Assembly: GCA_030770535.1 (NCBI GenBank)
Contig: JASVEC010000158.1
Coordinates: forward strand, 1 to 39,348
Direction: 5' to 3'
Source of the DNA: Batkoa obscura
Taxonomy: Eukaryota
Length of the DNA stretch: 39,348 nt
The translations under genes were made by a program, and so were the position numbers. A model generated the notes under the pieces. The model saw only the letters and a program-made list of their open reading frames with translations, ran no database searches and was not told where the DNA came from. Positions 4,202 through 39,348 of this stretch are shown here, one piece after another (position 1 is the stretch's first letter; the number at the start of each line of letters is the position of its first letter).

Positions 4202-4487
4202 TATAATGTATTTTGTTTGTTATCATAAAATTATAATTTATAATAAAATTTTAGTAGCATAATAAAAAGCTCAAAAAGTTTATAGTTAAAAAGATTTACT
4301 GTTATATTTTAAAAATGAGGTGGATGGAACGCTTATTTTTTGATTATATATTAATGAAATATTGTAAGGATCCAAATTTAACCCTGCCAGCTTAAAGCTT
4401 AACATTGATACGGCTTTTTGTTTGTTTAACTAATTTATAAACTTATGTATATAAAGCTGCTTTTATTTTACTGAAAAGCTACTATAT

Positions 4488-4585
4488 GAGGATGTAGTTT
4501 TTAGCTTTATCACTTTTTACATTTTTAAGCGCTATTTGAGTGGAAAGATTATTAGTGAAATTCTTAAACAAAAAAACACATCCCC
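4488..4585 (+). mobile_element. MITE family A copy 1 (~98 bp)
   Basis: GAGGATGT...ACATCCCC termini, ATAT on both sides, core AAGCGCTATTTGAGTGGAAAGATT shared with 7 other copies. Confidence 0.8.
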
Positions 4586-4932
4586 ATATATTATTTGAAT
4601 ATCACACCAATTGATAACCCATTAATCAGTGAAGCATCTAATAATTACTTAATTCTATAAGTTACAGCAGACTTTCTATGCTATAAATAGTTTTAATGGT
4701 ATTATTAATACCCAAATTGTTATAACAATTAGTAATTGCCAATATATATTTAGTTGTAAGATTATCTTACCTAATCTAGAATCTTCTTTTGATCTTTAAT
4801 TTTGGAAAAACACATCAACTTAAGATTCCACAATTTCCGGATATGATTGGCTAAAAACTATACAACTTTACCCATGATTTTGAGTTTAAAATCAAAATAA
4901 ACTCAAAATTTCATCTTCAATTTTTAATTAAA

Positions 4933-13784: not shown

Positions 13785-14246
13785 TGTGAAATCTGGTACT
13801 CAGTGGTTGGAGTTAAAAGCAATTTTTGCTTGATTAATTAATTATAAGTCGAAGGGTTTTAGTTTATGTAACCAAGATAGTTTTGAATTATGAACAACAG
13901 CATATAATAAGTTATGGATATGTAAGATAAATCAAATAGATGATACTGTTGTAAAATTTATATGAAATATTATAAGAAAGATCTAGCAACTTTATTAAAA
14001 GTACAACATCAGGAGATAATTCAGTTAGAAAGCCTTGAGTTATTATGTTCTATAGTCTCTTTTATACTCCAACAAGTATGGATATCAAAACGGGGAGATA
14101 ATATCCTTCAGAGTCATGTGACAGAAATCCTCATACCAAATCAAGATAAGGGCTTGGGATTGATTGTGCCTGGACTCGAGAACATAATGACCTAAGTGAT
14201 TCTTTGTTATAATTAATCATAGAGCTGACAAAGTGATATTTCATGA
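13785..14246 (+). mobile_element. Degenerate repeat, probable non-LTR retrotransposon (LINE ORF2) relic; left arm of inverted pair
   Basis: Reverse-complement homolog at 15247-15709. Broken frames give ISRRVLVYVTKIVL, QIDDTVVKFI* and ILQSHVTEILIPNQDKGLGLI, reminiscent of post-RT LINE motifs. The repeat is certain; LINE identity is from recall only. Confidence 0.5.
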
Positions 14247-14743
14247 TTATAAACTAAAATAGCCTTTTATTAAATGATTGTATTATTAAATATTAAAAAT
14301 AAGTTTTAGAAGTCTAGTTACTAATATTCAAATATATTTTAAAAAGCTTTAATATAGTAACTATAATTTTAATAAAGTTAAATATTAAGATAAGTTTAAA
14401 TAAACTATTAATTAGTATACTAGTATTCTTATAAAGATTATTTATGAAGGTTTAAAATAGATAATTATTATATATTTATTATTAGAATAGTTATTAAAAT
14501 TATAAAATAACTTTCTTTTATAAAATGTTTTTATAAAAATTAGGTAAATGCATTAAATTTAAAAAAGTATAGTATAATGAAAACTGTTCATGCATATTAA
14601 AAAATCTAAAATTAGGATGAATATGCTAACACAGAGTGGAAAAGTTATTAAATAGATTATTAGAACTAATTTTAAGATGAATATATATAATTTAATAAAT
14701 TTGGTATTAATACTAGTGGTAGTCAGGCTTTTGTAATAATGTT

Positions 14744-14841
14744 GGTGATGTTTTTTTTGATTTCATTATTTTTCCATTTTCTAAGCGCTATTTGAGTGGA
14801 AAGATTGTTAATAGAATTCTTAAACACAAAAAAACATCCCC
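14744..14841 (+). mobile_element. MITE family A copy 2
   Basis: GGTGATGT...ACATCCCC termini and family core; TSD not preserved. Confidence 0.75.
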
Positions 14842-14942
14842 ATTTGTTATTAAAAATAGATGTTGTTTTATAAACAAATAAATTAAGTAGAGCTTGATGT
14901 AAGTTATTTTTTTAATTTTAAAAACAGGATCTAGCTGAATAT

Positions 14943-15039
14943 GAGAATTTGTTTTTTTGTTTGAGAACTTAACTAGAAATTTTTCCACTCAAATAGCCCT
15001 TAAGAAATGGAAAAAGTAATGAAACCAAAAAACACCCCC
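14943..15039 (-). mobile_element. MITE family A copy 3
   Basis: Reverse-orientation core TTTTCCACTCAAATAGC; GAG...CACCCCC ends; flanks ATAT/GTAT. Confidence 0.7.
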
Positions 15040-15130
15040 GTATAAAATCTAGATTTATTTTTAAATTTAATAGTGTTATTGTTAAGATTCTATATATTAT
15101 ATCTGAGTAGTTTTTTATGATTAAACATAT

Positions 15131-15229
15131 GAGGATGTGTTTTTTGTGTTTAAGAATTCTATTAACAATCTTTCCACTCAAATAGCGCTTAGAAAATGGA
15201 AAAATAATGAAACTAAAAAAAACAGCTCC
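15131..15229 (-). mobile_element. MITE family A copy 4
   Basis: GAGGATGT...CAGCTCC, ATAT on both sides. Confidence 0.8.
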
Positions 15230-15246
15230 ATATTAATCTTGTGAAA

Positions 15247-15709
15247 TATTATGGAATACTGCTTTATCAGCTCTATGATTAATTATAACAAAGAATCACT
15301 TAGGTCATTATGTTCTCGAGTCCAGGCACAATCAATCCCAAGCCCTTATCTTGATTTGGTATGAGGATTTCTGTCACATGACTCTGAAGGATATTATCTC
15401 CCCGTTTTGATATCCATACTTGTTGGAGTATAAAAGAGACTATAGAACATAATAACTCAAGGCTTTCTAACTGAATTATCTCCTGATGTTGTACTTTTAA
15501 CAGAGCCACTAAATTCTCTTAATAGTAATTTAGGTAGATTTTACAGTAGTATCATCTATTCTATTGTCTTACATAGTCTATAGCATATTACTTGCTATTA
15601 TTTGCAACTTAAGTCTACCTTAGTCACATAAACTAAGATCTTCCGACTTACAGTATAGTCAATAAGTAGTAATTGTTTTGGCTCCATTCACTGAATATCA
15701 GATTTCACA
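15247..15709 (-). mobile_element. Right arm of the same inverted pair (probable LINE relic)
   Basis: 15267-15500 is the exact reverse complement of 13995-14228; flanks on both sides are homologous but diverged. Confidence 0.5.
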
Positions 15710-16110
15710 CAATTTTATAGTTAAATTAATTCTAATTTGTATAGTAAATTAAGTTAACTTCAAGTAATTTTGCTATTAAAAGCTGTTGTATTTTTGAATT
15801 TAAGTACAACTAATTTAAAACTTTCTATTTAGATTTACTACAAAATTTTTACAGTATGATTATAAAAATAATATTTTTGTATTTTAATATCTACATTTAA
15901 CAATTATAATAAAGAATAACTATTGTATTTTTATATACAATTATTTAATTAAAGTATAAAATTTTTTTAACATGGTAATTTAAAACTTTCTTTAAATTAT
16001 TTTTTAATATTATATACTTTAATCAAATTATTAAACTTTATAGTATTTTATGTAAATTTTATATTTTGAGTTATATAGTCAAAATGAACTTTAATTTATA
16101 AACATAATGT

Positions 16111-16209
16111 GGGGCTGTATTTTTGTGTTTGAGAATTTTACTAACAAATTTTCCACTCAAATAGCACTTAAAAGATAGAAAAAGTGATGAAGCCAAAAAA
16201 AATACCCCC
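16111..16209 (-). mobile_element. MITE family A copy 5
   Basis: GGGGCTGT...ATACCCCC, flanks ATGT/ATAT. Confidence 0.75.
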
Positions 16210-16317
16210 ATATGCAATTTTTATGCAAATCATAGGAAATAAATGAAAAAATACTTTTTTATTTAAACTAATTGAAATAAAAGTTTTAATGACTTATTAT
16301 ATAATAAGCTATTATAT

Positions 16318-16417
16318 GGGGATGTTTTTTTTGGCTTCATCACTCTTTTGATTTTTCAGGTACTATTTAAGTAGAAAGATTATTAATAAAATTCTTAAAC
16401 ACAAAAATACATCCACA
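16318..16417 (+). mobile_element. MITE family A copy 6
   Basis: GGGGATGT...ACATCCAC, ATAT on both sides. Confidence 0.8.
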
Positions 16418-17056
16418 TATACATAAAATAGCTTTGTTTTTTAGGTTTATTTATATTAATGGATGTTTATTAATTATTTGGTTTTTATTTAATTTTATTT
16501 GGTTTGATTTAAAGCATTTAAAATATAACTTTCACTTTTCATAAATTAATTTTTTATAATTATTTATAAGCTTAAAAATTTATTATTAAAGTTTGATTTT
16601 TAATTATTAAAAATTTTAATAGTTGAATTTTGTCTAATTTAGTTTCTACAAAAATTGCAAACCAAGTATAAAATGCTATTAAGTTAGATGTTTTCTTAAT
16701 TTTATATTATATAAGAATATTTTTTATCCAGTATTCATTTAAAAAAAACTTAACACTATGCTATATATAAAATGGACAAAAAAGCAAATTACAAAATTTT
16801 ACAATTTTAACTGACTTTTTATTAAACCTACATATATTAAAATCAAAAAAACAAATTATTTATAGTGAGAATATTCAAACATAAAAATCACAACTGTAGA
16901 ATCAAATTAATGCAGTTAATAGTAACAAAAACTTGGCAAAAAAAAGAAAATTTTGTATTATGATTGGCTTATTTTATGAGCATCTCATTCAATCCAAAAA
17001 AATTCCATGACATAAGTTGTCAGATTCATCTATGATTCTTAGCTTTTATTATCAAA

Positions 17057-19156
17057 ATGGATGAAGTCAACAAAAAAAAGGAGGATGAAAAAAACAATTC
17101 TGGAGATGATAAATCAACAAAAGAGCCTACATACTGGTATCAGCAACCTGAAGTAGTGCCTGGACCTCTTCCAATATTAAGTCGTCCGGAGAGAAACAAA
17201 AACAATGTTGCAGCAGAAGAGATTGCCCCCAATATTTTCATTAAAGACCCAAAGTCTTTACCTACCGACTTATCCAAGTTCCAAAGACCAAGGGGATACT
17301 ATGAACAACTTAAAGCTGATCCTGAACTAGTCGCTCCTCCTTATGAGGAGCCAAAACTCATCGGCTCGAAGCCCAAACTTGGGTTAACAGTTAGAAAGAA
17401 AAAATTATACAGCGATAAACCAACTCCAGATGGTATAGGAAGGCATGTGATGCAGATCCGCAACGCAGATGACATCAAAGACCTTGAAGCTCCTTTGAAA
17501 TTAATTCGTAAAGAAGTTCGCCTTTATGCTGAGAAAACTAAAGAAGAACTCGCAGAGATAGCTAAAAATGAAGCTAAGAATCTTGGAACAGGCGGTGGTG
17601 CGAATGCTAAAGGAGGAGCCTCACAAGGAGGTACAGGATACAATAAGCAAAATATGTTCAAGAAAAAGACAATTCAGATTTTTGAGCATGATAAAGAAGC
17701 TCGAGAAATAAAATTACGTGAAGCGCTGCCTTGGGTTGTAGCAGATGCAAATGGTATTGAACATCTTAAAGGAAAACACGATGAAGAGGAAGACATTCGT
17801 TATATTGCTTTAATTAAAGGAAAAAATGGAAGAACATATATCAAAAAAGTAGATCGCATTTATAATTTTACTTACCGTCCACCAACCAGTGAGCTTACCC
17901 TAGAGCAAAAAGAAAATCTCATTAGAGTGAGAAACAAAACCAAGAAAGGAGGAAGTCTCAAGTCTAAAATTGGTGATGCTCTTAAGAGTATGTTAAAGAA
18001 AGATAAAGAATCAGATGTAACTGCTAGTGCATTTGGCGGGTACAATCCTCTTAAACTTAAAACAGTACATGGAGCACAAAACTATAGTGATTTTAACAAT
18101 GGCCGTGGGGAAGATATGGAGGAGGTTGACTACGATGAAGATTTTCAAGATGATGATGAAGGAGTTGCTGCAGATGACATTGATGAGGATACAAAAGCCT
18201 TTGAAGATAGAGTTAAGAAAAGCCAACAGCGTTTGAATCCTGCTGGATATTTCGATGATGACATGTTTGGAGAGGATAAGGATGAAGGTAGTAAGTCTGA
18301 AAACAACAAAGAAGACGAAGAGGAAGATAGCGAGAATGTAGCCGAAGAAATTGAAGAGCAGATAATTGAAGAACAAATGGCTGATCTCAGTAACAACAAC
18401 GCGAATGATTCTGATTCTTCATTTAACGAATCAGACATTGAAAAGATGGATACTGCGGTTGAAAATAAGCGTGATGCACAAAAAGCGTTAGCAAATGGAT
18501 CTCCCGTAAGTAAATCAGGATTGAAAAAGAGAGAAGCATCTAAACTTAAGTTAGAATCTAGAAAAGGGTCAAAAGGAAAAAAGGCAGAATCTAGCTCCAA
18601 ACCAGCTAGTACAAACCAAAGCGGTCTTAAACGTGGAACTAAAAATACTAGCCAAGCTATTCAAAATGTACTTCAACGCCAAAAATTAGATGAAAAGAGA
18701 GCAAGAGATTTACAAACTGATCCAATTGCTAGAGCTAGAGCAGCTGCAAATCAGCCACTTAGACCATCACCACTTTCTCAAACTACCACTCTTAACCCTT
18801 CCTCTCAATCAAAGAGGCCAGCTGATGGAGCATTAGATGCGAACAAACAACCTAGGCAAAAGGTGTCACAAAGTCCAAACAGTCAAAACTCAGAATCAAG
18901 AAACCGAGCTACAGTTTCAAATGCAGGTACTGATTTGCAAAGCCTATTTCAACCTAAAAATGTTGTAAAGATTGTTGAAGAAAACCCTGGTATTACTCCA
19001 GTTCAAGTATATGAGAAGTTTAAAAAAAAACACAATCTTGAAGAGGCCTCGGAAGAGGATTTAGCTATTCTTCGTAAGTTTATATCCAAAGTTATTACCA
19101 GAGATCCAGGGACTAACAAGGCTGTTGTTAAAGAGAAGTTTAGATCTCTAAGATAA
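17057..19156 (+). CDS. TFG1: Transcription initiation factor TFIIF large subunit (Rap74/Tfg1-like)
   Basis: Intronless 699 aa. FKKKTIQIF...REALPWVVADANG..LKG, YNFT, acidic EVDYDEDFQDDDE segment, low-complexity region and short C-terminal winged-helix-like domain match the fungal Tfg1 layout. Confidence 0.78.
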   Translation: MDEVNKKKEDEKNNSGDDKSTKEPTYWYQQPEVVPGPLPILSRPERNKNNVAAEEIAPNIFIKDPKSLPTDLSKFQRPRGYYEQLKADPELVAPPYEEPKLIGSKPKLGLTVRKKKLYSDKPTPDGIGRHVMQIRNADDIKDLEAPLKLIRKEVRLYAEKTKEELAEIAKNEAKNLGTGGGANAKGGASQGGTGYNKQNMFKKKTIQIFEHDKEAREIKLREALPWVVADANGIEHLKGKHDEEEDIRYIALIKGKNGRTYIKKVDRIYNFTYRPPTSELTLEQKENLIRVRNKTKKGGSLKSKIGDALKSMLKKDKESDVTASAFGGYNPLKLKTVHGAQNYSDFNNGRGEDMEEVDYDEDFQDDDEGVAADDIDEDTKAFEDRVKKSQQRLNPAGYFDDDMFGEDKDEGSKSENNKEDEEEDSENVAEEIEEQIIEEQMADLSNNNANDSDSSFNESDIEKMDTAVENKRDAQKALANGSPVSKSGLKKREASKLKLESRKGSKGKKAESSSKPASTNQSGLKRGTKNTSQAIQNVLQRQKLDEKRARDLQTDPIARARAAANQPLRPSPLSQTTTLNPSSQSKRPADGALDANKQPRQKVSQSPNSQNSESRNRATVSNAGTDLQSLFQPKNVVKIVEENPGITPVQVYEKFKKKHNLEEASEEDLAILRKFISKVITRDPGTNKAVVKEKFRSLR

Positions 19157-31324: not shown

Positions 31325-33064
31325 TCATTTATTAGAATTAGTAATAGCTTCAATACACCCAATAAGACTTAAATTGAATAAACTATGATTACTATAAACC
31401 AAAGTAGAAGTTAAACTGTGATAAATATTAAATCCTTTACAAATATACTGCTTAGACACTCCGCATGAAATTTTTTTATGATATCTTATTAGAAAAGTTA
31501 AACACTGCGCTAAATTAGTGAACCCATAAAACACTAGATATTGTTTTGGTAATAAAGATAATAACTCAATACACAATTGACATTGTTTAATAGCTTCTTG
31601 AGTCGTCTTATTACTTGGTCTATCACGAGTGTAAAGTAACTCATAATTCATTCCTTTTAAAGGTTGTTGAAAAAAGTATAATGATAAAATATAATATTGA
31701 TGAAAATGATAAAGTACTTGCACAATTACCTTTAAATACATTAAATGTTTATAGATGGATACACTACTACTATTTTGTTGTAGTGATGTTAACTTAAAAT
31801 AATAATTTAAACTTGTTTTTCGTAGCTGAATTTTAATTGTTGTACAATGTTGATTCAATTTATCACTACTAATATTTGTTGCTGCAAAATAACCTTTAAC
31901 TAAGCGAAGCGAAAATATAACACCAGATAATTCTGATAAATACTCGTTGAATAACATGATTATAGTGTCATGGATAGATGTATACTCTCCTCTAATTTTT
32001 GATGGGATTCGGATTTTATAAGGTGTCATAACAGGTACATCAGACCATAATGAGTTAAGCATAGCAACAAGATTTAATGTGTTGTACGTTAATATTCTTT
32101 CTCTAATTATCTTTTTTGGCAGATGCAAACTCTTATTATGTAACCCAATAATGGACGCCATACATTGCGCAACAACAAACAAATGGTTTCTATATAAGCT
32201 AGTCAAACTAAAATGAGGTAGATGAATAACAATAACAAGGATGGCCTGAACGGTATCCAAATTATGCTTTACATTGTTTATGCAAGATAACATTGTTTCT
32301 AGTTTCATGTTAATATTATATAGCGCTTCTTTAACCTTTTGATCTTGAGATAGCCATGATAAACCAGCAGCTATTATTGACCATTTTAATAAAGGGGATC
32401 TTTGATCGATACTAAACCTATTTTTATCAATAAAGTTAAATACTAAACAACAATTATCAAAGAAGGATTGAATACTTAAACTCATTAGTTTCGAATCGAT
32501 ATCCCACTCTACTTCCTTATAAGAAATAGCTTGATTCTTTTTGAATATGAATATCATAAACTTTTCCACTAAACTCAATAATAGTGACAAATCCAATCTT
32601 ATCTTAAGTGGTGAATGGTATTGTATCAAAGCCATCAAGTTTTGTAACGCTATTTTTCTTGAAAATACCTTTATAAAACGGATAACTTCGTTTTCGTTTT
32701 TTATCTCTTTGAACATTACTCCATTATTTATTATTATTCCGTTATTCACTACTCCATTGTTACTGGTCATTGCTTTATTATTTGGTATAGCTAAACTATT
32801 GGATGATCCTCTGCTATTAACTACTACATTATTATTCACTTTCCTCCATCTGATTTTTTTTTTCGAGTCTTTGTTACTTTTAACTACTTGGCTGTTTTTC
32901 AACTGCTGATAATTGACAAACTGATCTTTCGCTTTAGTTCTTCCAACTACTCGGTCGTTACACCACTCATGTTCCACGGTTAGGTTACCACCAGTATTAA
33001 CCAGTAATTGTTTACAAAATTGGCAAACTTTCTCTTTCTCTTTTTTATATTCTATAATCTTCAT
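31325..33064 (-). CDS. Hypothetical 579-aa protein, possibly a divergent fungal Zn-cluster/middle-homology-region transcription factor
   Basis: Long intronless ORF; N-terminal CQFC...C plus basic patch, Asn-rich linker, helical domain with LDTVQAIL...MASIIGLH...RER, resembling the fungal TF middle homology region. Confidence 0.5.
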   Translation of the reverse strand: MKIIEYKKEKEKVCQFCKQLLVNTGGNLTVEHEWCNDRVVGRTKAKDQFVNYQQLKNSQVVKSNKDSKKKIRWRKVNNNVVVNSRGSSNSLAIPNNKAMTSNNGVVNNGIIINNGVMFKEIKNENEVIRFIKVFSRKIALQNLMALIQYHSPLKIRLDLSLLLSLVEKFMIFIFKKNQAISYKEVEWDIDSKLMSLSIQSFFDNCCLVFNFIDKNRFSIDQRSPLLKWSIIAAGLSWLSQDQKVKEALYNINMKLETMLSCINNVKHNLDTVQAILVIVIHLPHFSLTSLYRNHLFVVAQCMASIIGLHNKSLHLPKKIIRERILTYNTLNLVAMLNSLWSDVPVMTPYKIRIPSKIRGEYTSIHDTIIMLFNEYLSELSGVIFSLRLVKGYFAATNISSDKLNQHCTTIKIQLRKTSLNYYFKLTSLQQNSSSVSIYKHLMYLKVIVQVLYHFHQYYILSLYFFQQPLKGMNYELLYTRDRPSNKTTQEAIKQCQLCIELLSLLPKQYLVFYGFTNLAQCLTFLIRYHKKISCGVSKQYICKGFNIYHSLTSTLVYSNHSLFNLSLIGCIEAITNSNK

Positions 33065-33352
33065 TCGATTTTAGGTTTTATTAAGTTAACTTGGTCAATA
33101 TAAACCAGGTTGTTTTTTGTTTTAACATTTTGTTTTCATACTGAGAATATAAATTATTCTTAGTGTATTAAAGCTGGTGGATAAAGTTTGATTAAGTCTA
33201 ATTTGTAAGTTAAACTGGATTTTGTTCCATTTCATATATTATTTGTTACTCTATTTTTTGCAATTGTTTTTAGTCATTTGGCCCCAATTAGAAGAGTGTT
33301 TTTTCAAATTTCATGCGAGTTTTAAACTCGCGCTTAAAAAGTGAGCAAAATA

Positions 33353-33447
33353 TAATATGTATTTTAGTTTCATCACTTTTCCATTTTTAAGCATTATTTG
33401 AGCGGAAAAATTATTAGTAAAATTATTAAATCCAAAAATACATCCCC
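33353..33447 (+). mobile_element. MITE family A copy 7 (left end decayed)
   Basis: Family core and ACATCCCC-ATAT right end. Confidence 0.7.
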
Positions 33448-33683
33448 ATATGTTTTCATTATTATGTAAGACATTGGTAAATAAAGCTAAGTGATAATTA
33501 TACAAACTTCTATCAAAGTTATCTTAGTTTGATCATTCACTCATTTCCATTCACTGTAATTCCCAGCTTATAGTGAAAATATATGGAAAAAGTTGTATTG
33601 AACTACAACCAAAAAATTATACTTTTATACAAAATAACACAATTTTGATCAAAAGGCTACTACTGATTTGATTAAACACAATG

Positions 33684-33769
33684 TAAGCATTTTCAATTCT
33701 GTAATTGTTGAGTTTAATCATGGCAATTTTTTATTTTCATATTCAACATTACAAAATTGAAAATACTTA
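33684..33769. repeat. Small foldback element (~28-bp imperfect arms)
   Basis: TAAGCATTTTCAATTCTGTAATTGTTGA pairs with TCAACATTACAAAATTGAAAATACTTA. Confidence 0.55.
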
Positions 33770-33770
33770 T

Positions 33771-33866
33771 GGGGATGTATTTTTGGGTTTAATAATTTTA
33801 CTAATAATTTTTCCGCTCAAATAGTACTTAAAAATGGAAAAGCGATGAAGCCAAAAAAACATCCCC
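33771..33866 (-). mobile_element. MITE family A copy 8
   Basis: GGGGATGT...ACATCCCC perfect termini, TTAT direct repeat on both sides. Confidence 0.85.
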
Positions 33867-34251
33867 TTATGTTATATTCAATTGAACTAGTTGTAATTAG
33901 ATTTTTGAAGTTGATAGTTTAGAATTTAGCTTATATTTTTCAATATTCATTCTTTTTTCTCAAGCTTCTATTTTTTTTCGAAAACCTTAAAAGAGCAGAC
34001 AAGATCACAAAGACTTCTTTGTGGAAAACATTTTTAATTCACAATACATAAAAAGTTTTTATCTTTTCATTAGTTTACAGTGGGCCATTTTGCTCAACTA
34101 TTTTTTATATAAAAGTTTAAGAATCTAGCTAAATTGTAGAAAGATTTTTTTGACTTAGATCTCAGTTTGCAAAATTTAGATGACTTATTTCAAAAGCAAG
34201 TAAGGATTTAGTTTATTAGTATTTACGCTTCCTCTATAACTTTTTCAATAT

Positions 34252-38415: not shown

Positions 38416-39348
38416 TTATTTCTCCCCTATAAAAAATCAATACCTCAAAGCTCACAAAAATAAATTAAAAAGACATCCTACCATCCTTAGCTTCCAATTT
38501 CTCCGTCTCTCCCAATAATAATTGTTTATGGATGGTATTTAAAGCTTGTGGAACACTAGCTTTTGAAATAACACCTGAAATATTAATTTCAGAAGAACCT
38601 TGAGATATCATTTCTAAATTAGCACGTAAAAAATTCAAAGTTAAAGATAAATAGATAATATAATATAGTAATGTAAATTAAATTATTTTTAAAAAAAGGA
38701 TATCTGCCATTGATAAAGCTTTGAAAAAAGCTTTAGCTACTCCAGGTCGTTGTTTCATTTGACCACCAATTAAACTAATAATTACTAAATCTTTAAGCAC
38801 TTGAACCTAAAACAATAATTCAATATTAATATTTTGTAACATTTAAAAAAGAATAAAAAGTACTTACAAACCCTACTTGATTTAAGTCATCTACAGCCTT
38901 TGTCAGCCTTTCTTCGTCTGGTTTAGATAGAGCCATTGATAAATTAACTTCAGATGTAGATACTAAATCTGCAATCAATTGGTAATCATTTAGAATTTTA
39001 AACACTTTTTTTAAAAAATCAAAGGATCTAGATTTTCGATTGGATTGTACATTTAATACTACTACTTCTTCTTTAACACAAACAGCGGTTGCTAACCCTA
39101 ACACTTCATTTTCATTTCCAACTTTTTTTCGTCCAATGGTTGTACCTTTTATTTCTTGATCCTTTCCATTGACATTACAAATTCGAATTGTAATCTCTTG
39201 TTTACTAGCTATTTCAATAGCCATTGGATGCACTGCTTCGGTGCCATAATAAGTTAATTCATATGCTTCTTCAATTGTAACAAATGGTAAGATCTTAGAT
39301 TCTTTGACTATACTTGGATCTGCAGTATAAATCCCATCAATATGTTTC
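38416..39348 (-). CDS. HOM3: Aspartate kinase, 3' part (kinase C-lobe and two ACT domains; partial)
   Basis: DGIYTADP, EEAYELTYYG...VHP, DLVSTSEVNLS, ISLIGGQMKQRPGVA, NLEMISQGSSEINIS. Exons >39348-38868, 38806-38704, 38625-38482; ends at 38465 (unspliced) or 38416 (via GT-AG intron 38481-38427). Confidence 0.92.
38626..38703 (-). other. U12-type AT-AC intron (78 nt)
   Basis: 5' site ATATCCTTT, branch site TTATCTTTAAC (38650-38640), 3' site TTTAC; removal restores LSMA-G-ANLEMISQG. Confidence 0.9.

Follow-up and report, generated by a model that had tools for sequence, protein, structure and literature searches.

The gene described here lies on the minus strand, clipped by one edge of a 39,348-nucleotide stretch of DNA that was analysed as a whole (hereafter the window), and encodes a relative of the aspartate kinases. 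Pfam and PDB matches show an AA_kinase domain and two ACT domains, the second of which (ACT2) is complete once the introns that contigs skip (Table 1) have been removed. Elsewhere in the window, Pfam matches between positions 328 and 37263 correspond to the end of a ribonucleotide reductase large subunit, a RabGAP-TBC protein, a CHCH protein, Sas10/Utp3, a DWNN/zinc-knuckle protein (presumably Mpe1-like), NPR3, an XPG-family nuclease (presumably Exo1-like), a member of the NAP1 family and an LRR protein, while the open reading frames at 17036-19156 and 31325-33070 gave no Pfam match. The window also carries a 318-nt inverted duplication (13930-14247 and 15248-15565), with arms that are 92% complementary and separated by 1000 nt, each of them containing a near-identical short ORF-like stretch. 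Dispersed repeats of ~90-107 nt occur at 4486-4587, 14743-16420 and 33434-33868, often as inverted pairs 100-300 nt apart. A 16-mer of this repeat has 10 matches compared with 0.09 expected, and the repeats look like the ends of small non-autonomous transposons of a MITE-like kind.

Table 1. Features of the aspartate-kinase gene at the end of the window, with the evidence for each
Feature	Position	Strand	Evidence
Upstream exon, clipped by window edge; kinase-domain C-lobe and ACT1	38868..39348	-	contigs, homologues
GT-AG intron, 61 nt, donor GTAAGT	38807..38867	-	joints in contigs
Exon, first half of ACT2	38704..38806	-	contigs, spacing comparison
AT-AC intron, in second ACT domain	38626..38703	-	sequence and exact joints in 4/4 runs
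U12-type 5' splice site ATATCCTTT	38695..38703	-	sequence
In-frame TAA if intron is retained	38678..38680	-	sequence
Predicted U12-type branch site TCTTTAAC, second A = 38641	38640..38647	-	sequence match only
3' splice site TAC	38626..38628	-	sequence and joint
Exon, second half of ACT2 with NLEMISQG motif	38482..38625	-	contigs, Pfam
GT-AG intron, 55 nt, extreme C-terminus	38427..38481	-	contigs
Final coding bases and stop, fully spliced form	38416..38426	-	contigs
False 150-nt GT-AG intron of deposited model P0001	38614..38763	-	not among RNA contig joints

The deposited protein model of the gene (P0001) is broken within ACT2. In place of the AT-AC intron it excises a false GT-AG intron, whose donor lies 60 nt away from the true donor, and it preserves the Pfam ACT_9 match only in its second half; a predictor confined to GT-AG introns has thus mis-modelled the site in the way foreseen in the first-pass annotation of this DNA. 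With the junctions observed in transcript contigs, the C-terminal part of the protein is free of internal stops, and the distance from the S-L-I-G strand of ACT2 to its MISQ motif is 25 residues. The same spacing was found in 230 of 238 measurable proteins, drawn from a set of 344 of which 264 carry an ISQ/MISQ motif. Compared with this modal value of 25, the spacing is 1 in P0001 and 30 in P0002, the deposited homologue from Massospora cicadina.

The consensus strings of U12-type introns are RTATCCTT(T) for the donor and TCCTTAAC for the branch site. The AT-AC intron is 78 nt long with a GC content of 12%, splits a Gly codon after its first base (phase 1), starts with ATATCCTTT and ends with TTTTAC. 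As counted against the consensus strings rather than scored with a trained matrix, its donor agrees with RTATCCTTT at 9 of 9 positions, and the putative branch octamer, TCTTTAAC, agrees with TCCTTAAC at seven of eight, with its second A at -16. U12 introns are defined by their donor together with a branch site near the 3' end, and an optimum of 11-13 nt is quoted for the distance from branch site to 3' end (PMC3584512); here, 14 nt lie downstream of the octamer with its one mismatch, slightly more than this optimum. The first six letters of the donor, ATATCC, coincide with the GTAAGT donor of the adjacent major intron at two positions, so the intron lacks the donor that is U2-like apart from +1 by which type II AT-AC introns are known. 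If the segment is kept in the RNA it is read in frame into a TAA after eight codons, 196 nt 5' of the last junction. Re-reading of the sequence bore out the first-pass annotation on the coordinates of the intron, its AT and AC ends, its donor, its one-mismatch branch site and the TAA encountered on retention.

Taken across the window, which is 72% AT, these motifs occur at chance level: ATATCCTY is present five times compared with 4.8 expected from shuffles, and the combination of donor, branch site and AC end appeared at least once in 27 of 200 shuffled windows. The significance of the donor comes from its position at an observed junction, the probability of finding it by chance at one given site being ~6e-5. 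The eight further RTATCCTY matches in the window were set aside as intron candidates, their number being at chance level (judged on the ATATCCTY form); two of them (35272 and 35112) fall in a stretch without an ORF of note, and two others (18192 and 22154) run antisense to long ORFs. Excision of an internal GT-AG intron from the 78-nt segment is impossible, since the segment contains no GT or AG (nor any GC) dinucleotide.

Splicing was assessed with contigs from runs X1 to X4, four of the nine listed runs, which come from two studies; X5 to X9, among them organisms C and D with small word shares, lay outside this set. Although none of the listed runs is recorded as RNA, X1 to X4 were treated as such because their contigs skip introns and the 61-nt GT-AG intron has zero depth. 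In all four runs, contigs join 38625 to 38704 and skip 78 letters, with 0 letters of ambiguity at the boundary, which is exactly the junction that the first-pass annotation had predicted. On its short side the joint is covered by 94 letters in X2, 101 in X4 (both study P1), 30 in X3 (study P2) and 19 in X1, and a rule of 31 letters on both sides keeps two of the four runs, X2 and X4, which belong to the same study. The 61-nt GT-AG intron is likewise spliced in all four runs, with zero depth inside it and no retained contig listed, and the 55-nt GT-AG intron is joined in three of the four (X1, X2 and X3). An earlier statement that all other introns are GT-AG holds for these two, both in the aspartate-kinase gene, and its scope is limited to them.

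Several further features of the contigs were recorded. The 55-nt C-terminal intron is absent from the deposited model; its spliced and retained forms, which differ in the last residues of the protein, are both found in contigs. A second allele, at about one-third of the depth, is seen in X1 and X2 at 38522, 38916, 38928 and 38930 (and in X4 at 38522), each of the four runs departs from the window at 38531, and X3 does so at 38690 as well, inside the AT-AC intron; these differences suggest mixed strains or heterozygosity. The 3' end of the X4 contig runs on unlike the window before 38481. A spliced contig of X3 (record 20; 7802 nt) that lies on 38704-39348 extends ~7.2 kb past the window edge, far more than one aspartate-kinase mRNA, and probably consists of overlapping transcripts chained at high depth.

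The closest homologue of the host protein is P0002 (KAI0223980.1) of Massospora cicadina, at 45-52% identity. At the site of the intron, its deposited sequence reads GRYPF...SPLTPNLRANLE, and the donor and acceptor of the window, when read in shifted frames, give GRYPF and LRANLE. The P0002 peptide RYPF...SPLT...LR can be encoded by an RTATCCTY donor (8/96 codon choices) and a C[CT]TTAAC branch site (48/576), and its codons allow AC or AA at the 3' end and never AG (0/36 codon pairs). A random Y-P-F at this site has P ~1e-4, and P0002 is the sole protein with such a signature among the 264 that bear the motif. From these features we infer that P0002 includes the read-through of an intron of ~53 nt, with the same signals at the same site. 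The apparent persistence of a U12 donor at this degree of protein divergence argues for selection by a U11-type reader. Scans of a metagenome collection yielded 142 pattern matches and 0 confirmed cases when done by protein and 0 matches when done with the pattern of donor, branch site and exon, which is weak evidence because these fungi are unlikely to be in the collection.

The host protein is 33-39% identical to other fungal aspartate kinases. In a quick tree of 37 chosen rows, in which the meeting of long branches is flagged, P0001 and P0002 form a long-branch pair (SH-aLRT 97) apart from the canonical fungal aspartate kinases, and the canonical enzyme of Conidiobolus coronatus (P0176), 36% identical to the host protein, groups apart from both. 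Word-based searches turned up no member of the divergent clade beyond these two, and none could be recognised in the top 150 out of 10,394 representative hits, whose highest identities were 40-47% over partial stretches. Compared with the HOM3-type class I aspartate kinases of fungi (AA_kinase PF00696 plus ACT; PDB 2cdq, 2j0w, 3c1m), the host protein has the same domain order and the same catalytic and Asp-binding residues, but it stands on a long branch common only to Massospora and has changes in nucleotide-site columns. By motif match, K12, E140, R229 and D233 of the host protein (numbered, as are all residues here, from the deposited N-terminus, which lies outside the window) are the kept equivalents of K8, E119, R198 and D202 of E. 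coli AKIII (PMC4142519). The conserved Thr of KFGGTS, acid of WKE/WTD and Arg of DPR, all residues of the nucleotide site, are replaced. The substitutions are T16I (Thr in 268/285), K51H (Lys in 246/249), His at the acidic position 253 (acid in 308/313), R263S (Arg in 263/313) and K308C (Lys in 268/313), in columns that are 84-99% conserved, and overall the protein deviates at 18 of the 99 columns conserved at ≥85%. R263, the DPR Arg, was matched by motif to the nucleotide-binding R241 of the M. jannaschii aspartate kinase. P0002 likewise lacks the acid at 253, R263 and K308.

As judged from sequence, the host gene is a divergent relative of aspartate kinase, possibly a second copy, and the clade of P0001 and P0002, seen only in these two organisms, is a candidate pseudo-kinase or enzyme of changed specificity. 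The pairing with Massospora makes an entomophthoralean host lineage likely, on the strength of one long-branch gene pair. We know of no animal orthologue of the aspartate-kinase family. The first-pass annotation proposed that the Thr/Met pathway may be limited at its entry enzyme by slow removal of this intron. This proposal has fared poorly: the gene carries nucleotide-site substitutions and retention varies between runs, and a throttle on the entry enzyme is unsupported because the gene is divergent and the canonical copy of C. coronatus groups apart.

We conclude with considerable confidence that the 78-base segment is a real intron, most likely of the U12 type and removed by a retained minor spliceosome. 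By the established mechanism of minor splicing (PMC3584512), U11 would pair with the ATATCCTT donor and U12 with TCTTTAAC, leaving the branch A bulged, and U6atac and U5 would catalyse ligation. Transcripts that keep the intron would stop in ACT2 with half of this domain missing and would probably be degraded or retained in the nucleus. An Rfam scan of the 39-kb window found none of U11, U12, U4atac and U6atac, its sole hit being MIR169_2 at chance level (E 0.41). In its donor, its branch-like site near the 3' end and its terminal dinucleotides, the intron is the same as U12-type AT-AC introns described in Basidiobolus meristosporus and Rhizophagus irregularis (PMC10639083, PMC11347168), as it is in its non-zero phase, in being a lone minor intron among major ones and in its partial retention. 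It differs from those cases in that the host is likely a member of the Entomophthorales and in that both deposited models miss it. With U2-dependent (type II) AT-AC introns, such as those of SCN4A and SCN5A (PMC1557818), it shares its termini, whereas its donor is a full U12 donor and theirs is U2-like apart from +1. Since that class keeps the U2 donor apart from +1, and here the match is 2/6, a U2-type AT-AC intron is unlikely.

Splicing of the AT-AC intron is incomplete in two of the four runs. The depth of retained and spliced contigs is 1373 and 1247 in X3 (~52% retained) and 38.7 and 98.4 in X1 (~28%), and the listings for X2 and X4 contain no contig that keeps it; these shares derive from contig depth, a crude measure in which rare arms are dropped. 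Retention in X3 does not reflect DNA carry-over, because in this run the depth is 0 in the upstream intron and 26 in the downstream flank. One explanation, which concerns function and is compatible with a minor-spliceosome mechanism, is that retention of a U12-type intron serves as a condition-dependent switch between full-length protein and either a degraded message or a shortened protein, the latter without half of ACT2 and with a predicted loss of dimer contacts or feedback control. The disparity between runs speaks for such a switch, as do the lack of any retained contig for either flanking GT-AG intron in X3, the location of the stop 196 nt ahead of the last junction and a published model in which minor introns are rate-limiting (PMC3584512). 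However, contigs also keep the last GT-AG intron, in X1 (37%), X2 (16%) and X4, the runs being compared differ in organism label, study and alleles, and the depths are no less crude here. In addition, for Rhizophagus, Larue and Roy saw no association of minor splicing with proliferation, and they argued that evolution is largely neutral (PMC10639083). We therefore consider a switch possible but doubtful, and read the retention as the ordinary slowness of minor introns rather than as selected control of Thr/Met synthesis.

A second alternative accepts the intron as real but assigns its removal to the major spliceosome or to a hybrid one (for example, with U4 in place of U4atac); the intron would then be a relic of U12 origin in a lineage whose minor machinery has been lost in part or in total. 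U2-dependent AT-AC introns do exist (PMC1557818), and a high-confidence U4atac was not found in several mucoromycote and zoopagomycote genomes, for which a hybrid spliceosome has been proposed (PMC11347168). The retention of about half of the transcripts in X3 would fit removal of this kind, and the TTTAAC of the branch region could double as a U2 branch site. On the other hand, the donor is without U2 character, a full U12 donor has apparently been kept in Massospora, and splicing looks efficient in X2 and X4; we regard such a relic as quite improbable. Finally, a junction created by template switching or assembly across an AT-rich insert that is no intron is hardly credible, and is largely refuted by the contig joints: the motif is at chance level window-wide and the RNA nature of the runs is a guess, but there is no direct repeat at the joint, the same joint recurs in all four runs, the two neighbouring GT-AG introns are skipped too, and both frame and modal spacing are restored.

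Introns of the U12 type have precedents among early-branching fungi. The counts of Larue and Roy (2023) are 249 minor introns for Basidiobolus meristosporus and 205 for Rhizophagus (PMC10639083), and minor snRNAs have been reported in the Mucorales (PMC4133162). U11, U12 and U6atac were described in zoopagomycotes, including Basidiobolus, by Olthof et al. (PMC11347168; preprint 10.1101/2022.10.12.511939). According to the available parts of PMC10639083, minor introns have no convincing support in Dikarya, their ancestral density in Zoopagomycota is estimated to be low, and genes of organic-acid metabolism are under-represented among the minor-intron genes of Rhizophagus, as counted through human orthologues; C. 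coronatus, Entomophthora muscae and Entomophaga maimaiga are included in its Fig. S1. As far as the accessible tables extend, Basidiobolus is the only match to six queried genera in Olthof et al. and the supplement has no Entomophthorales rows (PMC11347168), nor do the supplements of Norppa 2024 (PMC11039992) and Vosseberg 2023 (PMC9887622), and C. coronatus appears only in the species table of de Wolf 2021 (PMC8280824). In the literature searched, which covered few subscription papers, we found no minor intron described from Entomophthorales and none from an aspartate kinase. For Zoopagomycota as a whole, minor introns were already known. The intronIC program takes annotated introns as its starting point and adjusts their boundaries by no more than ~10 bp (PMC10639083). 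With a false donor 60 nt off, a catalogue derived from the deposited annotation would overlook the AT-AC intron.

There is also a bolder, evolutionary reading, in which a fast-evolving aspartate-kinase paralogue specific to Entomophthorales acquired the minor intron after splitting from canonical HOM3, and variable retention would tune a regulatory or pseudo-kinase copy. Both models in the divergent clade (2/2) are broken at the site, and all 54 named non-Dikarya canonical models, 16 of them from Zoopagomycota, are ungapped there (53 by the pattern and one with Ser for Asn). The canonical set was, however, ranked by similarity, which favours intact models, and an ungapped protein model may still hide a correctly annotated or a GT-AG intron. 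For these reasons we hold a gain to be tentative and on balance unlikely. If it were true, this gain, concealed from surveys by mis-annotation, could be dated, and it would have occurred in a lineage thought to be poor in minor introns; if canonical HOM3 genes lack the intron, the gene would offer a test case for rare minor-intron gain.

The intron alone leaves the known picture of the minor spliceosome unchanged. For users of the databases, it means that ACT2 of these proteins is wrongly truncated there. For the biology of the group, the contigs are evidence at the transcript level that an AT-AC intron bearing U12 signals is spliced out in a fungus that is likely entomophthoralean. Since neither deposited model of the clade is intact here, the number of minor introns in these fungi has probably been underestimated.
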